NCBI GenBank assembly: GCA_042217585.1
Contig: JBDGSJ010000025.1
Location: 1 to 27,035, forward strand
Direction: 5' to 3'
Origin: Candidatus Nanohaloarchaea archaeon
GTDB lineage: Archaea > Nanohalarchaeota > Nanosalinia > Nanosalinales > Nanosalinaceae
DNA: 27,035 bases
Both the position numbers and the translations under genes were made by a program. The notes below the pieces were generated by a model that made no database searches, had not been told where the DNA came from, and was given only the letters and a program-made list of their open reading frames with translations. Shown here in pieces: positions 1-21,539 of this stretch (its first letter is position 1; the number at the start of each line of letters is the position of its first letter).

Positions 1-2
1 AA

Positions 3-166
3 CGCCAGCGCCCGGATTTGAACCGGGGAGGGCCGTTACAGCCCAGCAGATATATCGGGATTCTATCATCGGTCCGTGAGGACCTCAGCATATCCGCTGG
101 TTGGCCGGTGGCGGACCACCGGTCCGCTCGAATCTGCCGCGTTCAACCTGACTCCGCCACGCTGGC
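3..166 (-). tRNA. tRNA-Ser(CGA) with a 75-nt intron at position 37/38 (intron 52..126)
   Basis: Minus strand folds as a cloverleaf: acceptor GCCAGCG/CGCTGGC with G discriminator, anticodon stem GCAGA/TCTGC with loop TT-CGA-G|A, long variable arm GGGCTG-TAA-CGGCCC, T-arm CCCGG-TTCAAAT-CCGGG. The exon-intron junction forms a relaxed bulge-helix-bulge (TTCG/CGAT core, GGA/TCC outer helix). No encoded CCA. Confidence 0.95.
52..126 (-). ncRNA. Putative intron-encoded box C/D guide RNA (predicted targets U39 and C34 of the host tRNA)
   Basis: CTGA (D', 85-88) is preceded by a 12-nt guide complementary to the host 3' splice junction and exon 2. CGATGA (C'-like, 66-71) and CCGA (D-like, 55-58) flank a short guide to G30-C34. 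Box C is not clearly recognisable. Confidence 0.5.
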
Positions 167-198: not shown

Positions 199-264
199 CA
201 CCTTCCCAGCCGTGGGACCGGGCGGACCGTTTACATCTTAAATCATGGGGTGGATAAGGGGTGT

Positions 265-957
265 ATGGGGTACGATGCGGCCGTTTTCGACATGGACGGA
301 GTGATACTGAATTCTTTCGTCGAAAGTGAAGAGTGGAAGTTCGAGGCAGTCAGGTCCGCCCTCCGGAACGAGGGAGCGGATCCCGACGGTCTGGAGAGAG
401 ACGAGCTCCGTGAGATACTCGGCGACAAGGGGTACAAGGCCTGCGTGAAGAAGGCGATGGAGGTCGGGGTCAACCCGAGGGATATATGGACCGAGGTCGC
501 GGAGAGGACGGTCTCTGCGAGGAAGAGACAGCTTGAAAACGGTGATTTCCAGCTTTACGACGGTGTAAGGGAAACCCTGGAGTCCATCCACAGGGAGGTC
601 GAGATGGCGCTCATAAGCAACGCTCCTGACGAGGCCGTGATGCTGACCGTGGATCATTTCGATCTGAAGGAGTACTTCGAGTTCTACCTCGGTATAAGGA
701 ACTTCGAGGACCTCCAGGCGAGGAAGCCGCATCCCAACCACCTCGAGGTCGCCAAGGCGGAGATAAACAAGGAATCGCCTCTCTACGTAGGTGACGCGGA
801 GTCAGACATCATCGCGGCCCACAGGGCCGACATGGACGCGGTATGGGTCAACAGGGACGGAGTGAACCCTGAGAAACTGGACGTGAGCCCCGAATACGAG
901 GTCCGGGAGATCTCAGAGATACTCGAGATAATAAAGACCGGTCAGGACGCCGCGTAG
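265..957 (+). CDS. HAD-superfamily hydrolase (phosphoglycolate phosphatase-like)
   Basis: Motif I FDMDGVI, motif II LISN, motif III/IV KPHP...YVGDAESD. ATG 265 is preferred over GTG 250 because CTTAAAT lies about 25 nt upstream of it. Confidence 0.9.
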   Translation: MGYDAAVFDMDGVILNSFVESEEWKFEAVRSALRNEGADPDGLERDELREILGDKGYKACVKKAMEVGVNPRDIWTEVAERTVSARKRQLENGDFQLYDGVRETLESIHREVEMALISNAPDEAVMLTVDHFDLKEYFEFYLGIRNFEDLQARKPHPNHLEVAKAEINKESPLYVGDAESDIIAAHRADMDAVWVNRDGVNPEKLDVSPEYEVREISEILEIIKTGQDAA

Positions 958-17204: not shown

Positions 17205-17572
17205 GGCAATTCACTCCCGCTACCTAACTCGGCTTCGCCTCATGAGGAAGGGGACTCCTTGCCATGAAAGTTGAACTCCCCGATGAAACGCCGCTAGACG
17301 TGGATAGCAGTGCAAAAGCACTGAAAAGCAAAAGCTTGCGGTTCCCTGACCCGGATCTCTGAATCGGGCGATCTCTTTCTACCGTTTTCACCACCGCAGA
17401 AAAGCTACAAACCTCTAACATTTTTAAATGGTTTGAAGAGCTGAAACCTCTCTAAAGGTTTTAAACGTATCGGAGAAAGGATACTGGGCGGTGAAAGACT
17501 ATAGGTTCCGGGTTCGGCTGGAAAAAGCACCGATCAGGTAAGTTGTCAGTCATCTAGAAAGGGGAAAAACAG

Positions 17573-17686
17573 TCTGGCGGCGTATCCACGCTTCCGCCTC
17601 GCGGCAGTACTGGTGGAATCGCTGGAGGACTTAACTTCCGTGTTCGGAATGGGTACGGGTGTTGCCCCTCCGCTTTGGCCGCCAGT
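17573..17686 (-). rRNA. rrf: 5S rRNA (unlinked)
   Basis: CTGGCGGC/GCCGCCAG helix I, conserved ACACCCGTACCCATTCCGAACACGGAAGTTAAG, and AGTAC loop E motif. Confidence 0.97.
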
Positions 17687-21320: not shown

Positions 21321-21487
21321 ATCCGAGATATGTTGAAGTCCCGGCTCCAGGATTTGAACCCCGACGAAAATCGGAGATTCGAAGATTCTCGATGAATCTT
21401 CTCCAAGAAAATCCTTCGCAGGATTTTCGTTTTCTGGAGGCTATCAAATCCGAGATATGTTGAAGTCCCGGCTCCAGGATTTGAACC
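21321..21487. repeat. Exact 40-bp direct repeat (21321-21360 and 21448-21487) of the tRNA-Tyr 3' end plus trailer, with an 87-bp palindromic spacer
   Basis: atccgagatatgttgaagtcccggctccaggatttgaacc occurs twice. Spacer hairpins: gaagattc/gaatcttc, gaaaatcct/aggattttc and ccga/tcgg. Confidence 0.95.
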
Positions 21488-21539
21488 TGGGACAAGTCGA
21501 TCTACAGTCGACCGCTCTGCCAGCCTGAGCTAAGCCGGG
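21466..21539 (-). tRNA. tRNA-Tyr(GTA), intronless
   Basis: CCCGGCT/AGCCGGG acceptor (C1-G72, A73), anticodon arm GTCGA-CT-GTA-GA-TCGAC, T-arm CCAGG-TTCAAAT-CCTGG. Confidence 0.97.

Follow-up and report, generated by a model that had tools for sequence, protein, structure and literature searches.

The tRNA-Ser(CGA) locus

The window, by which we mean the whole stretch of 27,035 nucleotides that was analysed, belongs to a 0.98-Mb archaeal assembly, probably nanohaloarchaeal (38 contigs, 89.7% complete), and its long reading frames are acidic (D+E 17%). A gene for tRNA-Ser(CGA) lies at its start on the minus strand (166-3) and contains a 75-nt intron at the canonical 37/38 site. The default tRNA scan overlooked this gene, which was recovered by ARAGORN with introns allowed; the Rfam scan of the window gave no family match at the locus. 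Exon 1 (127-166, minus strand, as are all features described here unless noted) comprises positions 1-37 with C34 at 130, and exon 2 (3-51) opens with A38 at 51 and U39 at 50 and folds with a long variable arm. Upstream of the gene, an AT-rich, TATA-like stretch (185-197) is, from sequence only, a candidate promoter. A HAD-family hydrolase gene (250-957, plus strand) is divergent from the tRNA, and further into the window are a stand-alone 5S rRNA gene (17572-17686) and an intron-less tRNA-Tyr(GTA) (21465-21539). The end of contig C24 (9233-9287) repeats window positions 1-55, which hold the 3' part of tRNA-Ser(CGA), and this can mean either an assembly overlap or an attachment-site duplication. 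Several further tRNA genes also sit at contig ends.

The intron (52-126) forms a relaxed bulge-helix-bulge motif with three of the four central pairs, as judged from the pairing and from the predicted fold. It runs, in order, through a short splice helix, a 5' hairpin (105-122; 7-bp stem, 4-nt loop) that is a variable insert not kept in relatives, a 12-nt guide (89-100), box D' with the sequence CUGA (85-88), a 5-bp hairpin that links D' straight to C' in the predicted fold (71-84), the GAUGA core of box C' (66-70) and a 14-nt tail ending in the splice-motif strand.

A putative guide aimed at U39 of its own host

The original prediction was that this intron is a box C/D guide RNA of the tRNA-Trp type, directing 2'-O-methylation of its own host at U39 and C34. 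For U39, the claimed pairing is exactly as described. The segment CCAGCGGATATG (100-89), immediately before CTGA, pairs at all 12 positions with TATATCTGCTGG (54-43) through 10 Watson-Crick and 2 G-U pairs, and the fifth guide base, an A, stands opposite U39 at window position 50, as the N+5 rule demands. The guide is antisense to the 3' splice junction and to positions 38-46, its target (43-54) consisting of the last three intron bases and A38-G46. The duplex energy is -16.7 kcal/mol with the precursor and -14.4 kcal/mol with the mature junction. Equally good pairing is found at five sites in the assembly: the target, its copy on the overlapping C24 end, the strand opposite the guide itself, and two sites that are unrelated. 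The rRNA search of the genome found none assembled, so the guide may also have an rRNA target. By chance, about 4e-4 sites pairing this well are expected per 165-nt precursor. The longest uninterrupted Watson-Crick run in the duplex is 5, which falls below the run of 9 used for guide predictions in Pyrobaculum, according to passages of that study (PMC6009581). The predicted fold energies of the precursor are -78.0 kcal/mol for the splice-ready form and -79.3 kcal/mol for the guide-paired form, so nearly equal that either can form.

Conservation and covariation in relatives

Relatives were drawn from a set of 70 small genomes of the phylum and from a metagenome scan, whose 37 matches comprised 16 non-tRNA sequences, 18 genes without an intron (one of these incomplete) and 3 with an intron. 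Queries built from exons only yielded 28 distinct Ser(CGA) introns of 42-148 nt, with L050, which is identical to L019, counted once. The self-targeting guide extends beyond one genome: under a target-blind rule, 24 of these 28 introns retain the module, made up of guide, D', stem and GAUGA (L192, which has no GATGA, was judged by eye), whereas L007, L008, L011 and L192 have lost it or carry it in damaged form. A GATGA-based search added two Ser introns, L112 with the module and L108 without it. Of the resulting 25 Ser modules, 23 are aimed at U39 and 2 (L034, L035) at C34.

Among the 23 U39-type modules, position 5 is an A opposite U39 in 20 and forms a U-U mismatch in 3; positions 4 and 6 are paired in every module, and position 10, which extends into the variable arm, is paired in 19. 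Across guide positions 5-10, which track four different host stems, 126 of 138 cells are paired against 114.5 with permuted hosts. Guide positions 3 and 2 form Watson-Crick pairs with the last two bases of the intron in 39 of 46 cases against 22.8 after permutation. Neither value was reached in 20,000 permutations, a result that is overstated because related genomes are not independent; the changes are nonetheless spread over several genera. They occur on both sides of the duplex, the pair types being T-A (14), C-G (6) and G-C (2) at position 3 and A-T (13) and G-C (4) at position 2. Since the guide covaries with the last two intron bases, its target is mainly the unspliced precursor. Five guides have a C at position 3, which matches mature G37 rather than the intron base. 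For U39, the alignment of relatives upholds the original prediction, with the boxes conserved and the guide covarying with exon 2.

Three genera deserve separate mention. In genus g27 (L034, L035), the one guide of the Ser(CGA) intron is aimed at C34 and not at U39, a retargeting within one tRNA. In genus g23 (L065-L067), the guide duplex is retained with U-U at N+5 in all three introns. In genus g12 (L007, L008), guide and GAUGA are present and box D' is altered by one extra base, which can reflect decay or a variant.

The intron occurs in 13 of the 42 family-f1 genomes from which the gene was retrieved, and in 12 of the 12 f3/f4 genomes found by exon-only queries. The remaining 29 f1 genes have no intron at all, implying that the modification is dispensable or otherwise supplied. 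A search for a stand-alone U39 guide in intron-less relatives found a loose pattern in 59 of the 70 genomes and, by eye, no recurring stem-closed match outside introns. Further, 10 f1 genomes retain the boxes, the register and compensatory changes although their introns are otherwise unalike.

Motif geometry and the proposed C34 guide

Throughout the modules, box D', with GA in all 65 and U in 63, runs straight into a Watson-Crick stem whose closing pair at GAUGA is usually G-C (about 59 of 65). The stem abuts the G-A pairs, the 3-nt bulge is absent, and there is no K-turn or K-loop: zero bulge was called in 88 of the 101 introns with a candidate. The imperfect geometry of the motif had been taken as a possible sign of decay, an interpretation that fails in view of this count, the bulge-less form being the conserved state. 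Joardar et al. reportedly found in 2011 that the C'/D' motif of sR-tMet, without a normal K-turn or K-loop, still binds L7Ae. Of the consensus box C/C' (RUGAUGA), the GAUGA part, that is nucleotides 3-7, is present, and the RU is replaced by the C of the stem in 59 of 65 modules. As GATGA was the search term for the non-Ser introns, evidence for box C' comes solely from the Ser introns (24 of 28).

The claim of a second guide survives only in its description of the letters. TAGAATC-CCGA (65-55) is present, and TAGAATC forms six of seven pairs with G30-A36, placing a G opposite C34; its role as a guide is not borne out. The duplex amounts to only -4.1 kcal/mol, and a shuffled 7-mer matches equally well in 1.4% of cases. 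No equivalent was found in the 3' tails of the 26 other Ser introns tested, and the element stems from a 4-nt insertion that is missing in the two closest relatives, L005 and L006. CCGA also overlaps the bulge-helix-bulge helices, where, as read from the sequence, TCC pairs with the 5' GGA of the intron and CGA with U33-G35. CGGTGG, suggested as box C, sits within the unrelated 5' hairpin (122-105). A second D-like box after C' occurs in 10 of 65 modules against 9.7 expected, a second C-like box upstream in 1 of 65 against 2.2 expected, and both together in none of the 65. There is accordingly no conserved second C/D motif. C34 is not a target of this intron.

Compared with archaeal box C/D sRNAs in general, the intron has the box D/D' sequence (CTGA at 88-85) and the N+5 Watson-Crick register (a 12-bp duplex with A opposite U39, and 20 of 23 in relatives), and it lacks the two motifs and two spacers of about 12 nt. 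With tRNA-Trp intron guides of the sR50 type it shares the 37/38 bulge-helix-bulge intron aimed at its own precursor and, for the U39 guide, the same order of D' guide, D' and C', as had been proposed. Its host is tRNA-Ser(CGA) rather than tRNA-Trp(CCA), and the two guides for C34 and U39 are absent. Classified by sequence, the Ser(CGA) intron is a one-motif, bulge-less putative half guide rather than a complete box C/D RNA of the Trp type.

The same module in introns of other tRNAs

A pattern with GATGA 22-52 nt ahead of the T-loop matched 165 times in the 70 genomes, and 150 of these matches were listed. Taken from these were 30 automatic loci and 60 chosen by eye as tRNA-like; a few tRNA-like rows and the 15 unlisted matches were left out. 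Adding the Ser introns brought the total to 107 distinct introns of at least 30 nt; 77 have a module when a stricter rule, which excludes L009 and L019, is applied. This set, being selected on GATGA, shows targeting and not prevalence: 65 of the 77 target-blind modules pair with their own host over at least 6 bp and place position 5 at base 34 or 39, compared with 148 of 6772 (2.2%) when hosts are swapped. When pairing at any site was allowed, 69 modules paired, against 16.8 on average and 25 at most with shuffled guides, and the register was 5 in 66 of 67.

The targeted base follows the host. Position 5 falls on C34 in 21 of 23 Trp and 3 of 3 Met introns, on U34 in 8 of 8 Glu(UUC), 8 of 8 Lys(UUU) and 1 of 1 Leu(UAA), and on U39 in 6 of 9 Thr(UGU); 18 of 21 Ser introns place it on base 34 or 39, and none of 3 Thr(CGU) or of 1 Ala does so. 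In the genome of the window itself, GATGA is found in only 2 of the 15 tRNA introns, those of Ser-CGA and Trp. A genome-wide search with a short Trp-type module pattern gave two matches, L201 and L202, the former a Hydrothermarchaeota Trp intron with the same bulge-less single module. The minimal form is therefore not confined to the phylum of the Ser(CGA) host. The single genome available in the phylum of G060 gave no match. Trp introns of another archaeal phylum mainly have the full C-D'-C'-D layout with TGATGA; the pattern occurs in 189 of 201 genomes and belongs mostly to tRNA-Trp among the matches listed, 115 more lying beyond the listing. A Trp exon pattern with one mismatch allowed returned mostly noise.

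Three Trp introns whose hosts have U39 (L069, at G000:C23:29459-29641, L298 and L299) contain a second U39 guide after the C34 module, in N+5 register and with a plain 4-bp hairpin in place of the D box. The first pair of the hairpin is C-G in one and A-U in two, and L299 has one mismatch. With three cases and no control, this second guide is a candidate for a natural box-free guide. When 117 introns were scanned more broadly for box-free guides, likewise without a control, the scattered 7-9-bp matches led to no conclusion beyond the Trp lead.

Proteins of the proposed guide complex

Fibrillarin, Nop5 and L7Ae are all encoded in the genome, as a box C/D guide would require, with Nop5 shortened; genes for the splicing endonuclease and RtcB are present too. 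Nop was found in 65 of the 70 genomes of the phylum. The Nop5 of this genome (247 aa) is without most of the N-terminal domain that recruits fibrillarin, and it aligns only from residue 121 of a solved Nop5 of 388 aa. Before the WYxxHFPE motif, the Nop5 of its own family has about 50 residues against 124-161 in families f3/f4, which retain the domain. Family-f1 open frames measure about 247-284 aa, with one of 384, and are short in nearly all f1 genomes listed. In the f1 Nop5 examined (the C10:7926-8669 region, equal to L002:1486-2229, and L251-L279), about 75-90 residues of the N-terminal domain are gone and its last helix is kept. Fibrillarin of f1 is intact and conserved, with a mean column identity of 72% in 14 sequences.

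A predicted complex of the short Nop5 with fibrillarin, in contact through Nop5 residues 1-19, scored 0.78, against 0.00 for the best of three controls, and since like complexes have already been solved, this pass may reflect likeness. Of the solved pairs, 116 of 157 attained this mark; of the mismatched pairs, 2 of 215 did. The runs agreed in at least 94% of contacts, with a partner pLDDT of at least 84. The model supports, and does not show, fibrillarin binding by residues 1-19. Directly upstream of nop5, f1 genomes carry a conserved acidic gene of 140-160 aa without a Pfam match. The idea that this gene is the split-off N-terminal domain was rejected at a profile probability of 0.5%.

Proposed mechanism and alternative explanations

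What is observed is the module in its N+5 register, the way it covaries with exon 2 of the host and with the last two bases of the intron, and the enzyme genes. Taking these together, we consider it probable that a conserved single-motif D'/C' guide recruits Nop5-fibrillarin and 2'-O-methylates U39 of its own pre-tRNA-Ser(CGA) before splicing, the methylation being a prediction. The tandem G-A stem on a plain hairpin, with no kink bulge, would dock on the C-terminal domain of Nop5, with or without L7Ae; the anticodon stem of the precursor would open and pair with the guide, and fibrillarin would methylate the base opposite guide position 5. Release could then re-form the bulge-helix-bulge and permit splicing. 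The guide might act within one molecule, or from another precursor or an excised intron. With L7Ae, engineered one-motif guides show site-specific activity in vitro, and Nop5 binding is also possible when a plain stem takes the place of the motif, as reported in passages of two structural studies (PMC9670817, PMC7229835). Concerns arise from the same literature: L7Ae recognises a 3-nt bulge and a projecting U, both missing in the Ser(CGA) motif, and monopartite guides without L7Ae perform poorly (PMC9670817). An earlier single-site complex was active yet not site-specific (PMC1635284), a finding disputed in PMC7229835. The shortened Nop5, the U-U at position 5 in g23, the absence of the intron from 29 of 42 f1 genomes and the Watson-Crick run of 5 also count against this mechanism.

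A more general proposal builds on the half guide and is offered tentatively, as one we ourselves regard as doubtful. Natural, re-programmable half guides on a kink-less G-A duplex would anchor Nop5 without needing L7Ae, a stripped-down Nop5 would hold fibrillarin by a single helix, and one cassette would have been retargeted from tRNA to tRNA to mark base 34 or 39 before splicing; the three Trp introns would add a natural box-free U39 guide on a plain 4-bp stem.

Methylation is not a necessary consequence of the pairing. The protein-bound module could act as a checkpoint in folding or splicing, keeping the precursor in the guide-paired, unspliceable fold until release. The two folds are nearly equal in energy, the guide covers the 3' splice site, g23 retains its pairing despite U-U at position 5 (3 of 23), Nop5 is shortened, and conserved N+5 mismatches have been interpreted in this manner in passages of the Pyrobaculum study (PMC6009581). 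A checkpoint needs no fixed register; yet position 5 lies on base 34 or 39 in 66 of 67 modules, both known sites of intron-guided methylation, and we regard this explanation as unlikely. It is quite improbable, in our judgement, that the module is a relic of a formerly active guide, dead in f1 since Nop5 lost most of its fibrillarin-binding domain. Such a history would suit the short Nop5 of nearly all f1 genomes listed, the 29 of 42 f1 genomes without an intron and the four introns with a lost or damaged module (L007, L008, L011, L192); it sits badly with the boxes, register and compensatory changes maintained in 10 f1 genomes despite introns that otherwise differ, with an intact, conserved fibrillarin and with a leftover Nop5 helix that is predicted to bind it.

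A full two-guide RNA of the Trp type, methylating both U39 and C34, strikes us as very improbable. It could appeal to TAGAATC, with its G opposite C34 before CCGA, and to the in vitro finding that a plain stem can stand for a box (PMC9670817, in part); it has to contend with a C34 element that is weak, matched by chance in 1.4% of shuffles, produced by an insertion and missing in 26 of 26 other Ser introns, with a spacer of 7 nt against the usual 12, and with the lack of a partner box C. Finally, guide positions 4-9 frequently repeat the letters of exon 1 bases 27-32, so the guide might be a by-product, a duplicated piece of exon 1 that is complementary to 38-43 by construction. We give this next to no credence. 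Duplication does not explain the pairing with the last two bases of the intron, the pairing of position 10 in 19 of 23 modules, why the guide always lies 3 nt from CUGA, or why guides in other isotypes are antisense to the anticodon loop, and it is largely refuted by the covariation seen in relatives.

Relation to known guides

If the preferred reading of a half guide that methylates U39 is correct, its nearest counterpart is the guide in euryarchaeal pre-tRNA-Trp introns (Haloferax volcanii; Pyrococcus sR50), which directs Cm34 and Um39. According to passages of the relevant papers (PMC2584109, PMC7994747, PMC4090602), that guide also resides in a 37/38 intron, acts on its own host by N+5, has the U39 guide before D' and then C', and includes intron bases in the duplex. 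The Ser(CGA) intron differs in its host, in having one motif instead of two, in lacking a C34 guide, and in a C' that consists of C-GAUGA on a stem without bulge or loop. It would thus work like the D' half of a Trp-intron guide, differing in motif number, kink and dual targeting. It also resembles the engineered halfmer and stem-substituted guides BMG1 and MMG3-5 (PMC9670817, PMC7229835, as far as their passages describe them), with one motif, a 5' guide, a 3' overhang and the target at position 5. Those are laboratory constructs with a K-turn, K-loop or plain stem, whereas the Ser(CGA) module is natural and intronic and has a G-A stem without a kink bulge.

Other cases are more distant. The Nanoarchaeum equitans tRNA-Met intron (PMC3491384) likewise interrupts a tRNA other than Trp, contains box C/D-like elements and comes from a reduced archaeon, and there a stable RNA was detected; it has a different host tRNA, and the case is putative, the passages of that paper assigning no target. 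The haloarchaeal sR-tMet, a trans guide for Cm34 of pre-tRNA-Met, also targets an intron-containing precursor (PMC2584109, in part); unlike the Ser(CGA) guide, it is encoded outside the tRNA gene and is aimed at C34. In Pyrobaculum, wobble bases are the predicted targets of known separate sRNAs (PMC6009581, in part). In passages of reviews and related papers, the Trp intron is the only tRNA intron with a proven guide role, 'a unique example' (PMC4090602; PMC11408192, PMC7994747, PMC4033218, PMC2584109). Our literature search found no guide in serine tRNA introns or in Nanohaloarchaeota; its coverage stopped short of most subscription papers and of the Trp-intron alignments of 29 archaea in the supplements of PMC2584109, which may show one-motif introns.

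One-motif guides over seven isotypes would, if real, give many archaeal tRNA introns a function. The modified bases predicted are Um39 in Ser-CGA and Thr-UGU, and Um34 or Cm34 in Glu, Lys, Leu, Met and Trp. Whether one-motif guides, or a stem in the place of a motif, occur in archaea was left open by the structural work, as its passages state (PMC9670817), and these introns would provide natural substrates for that question. An RNA of 40-75 nt and three small proteins make the proposal directly testable in vitro.

Some further observations concern the introns at large. Fifteen tRNA genes of the genome have introns, 11 of which are 57-135 nt long; contigs C2, C3, C11, C13, C17, C26, C33 and C38 are among those that carry tRNA genes of this kind. 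The same short hairpin cassettes turn up in introns of different tRNAs and of different genomes (for example L071, L019, L025 and L307), suggesting intron shuffling. At C17:3-149 (L072), ARAGORN reports a tRNA-Ile whose anticodon is UAU and whose intron has 74 nt; a tRNA-Ile with this anticodon is unusual for archaea.
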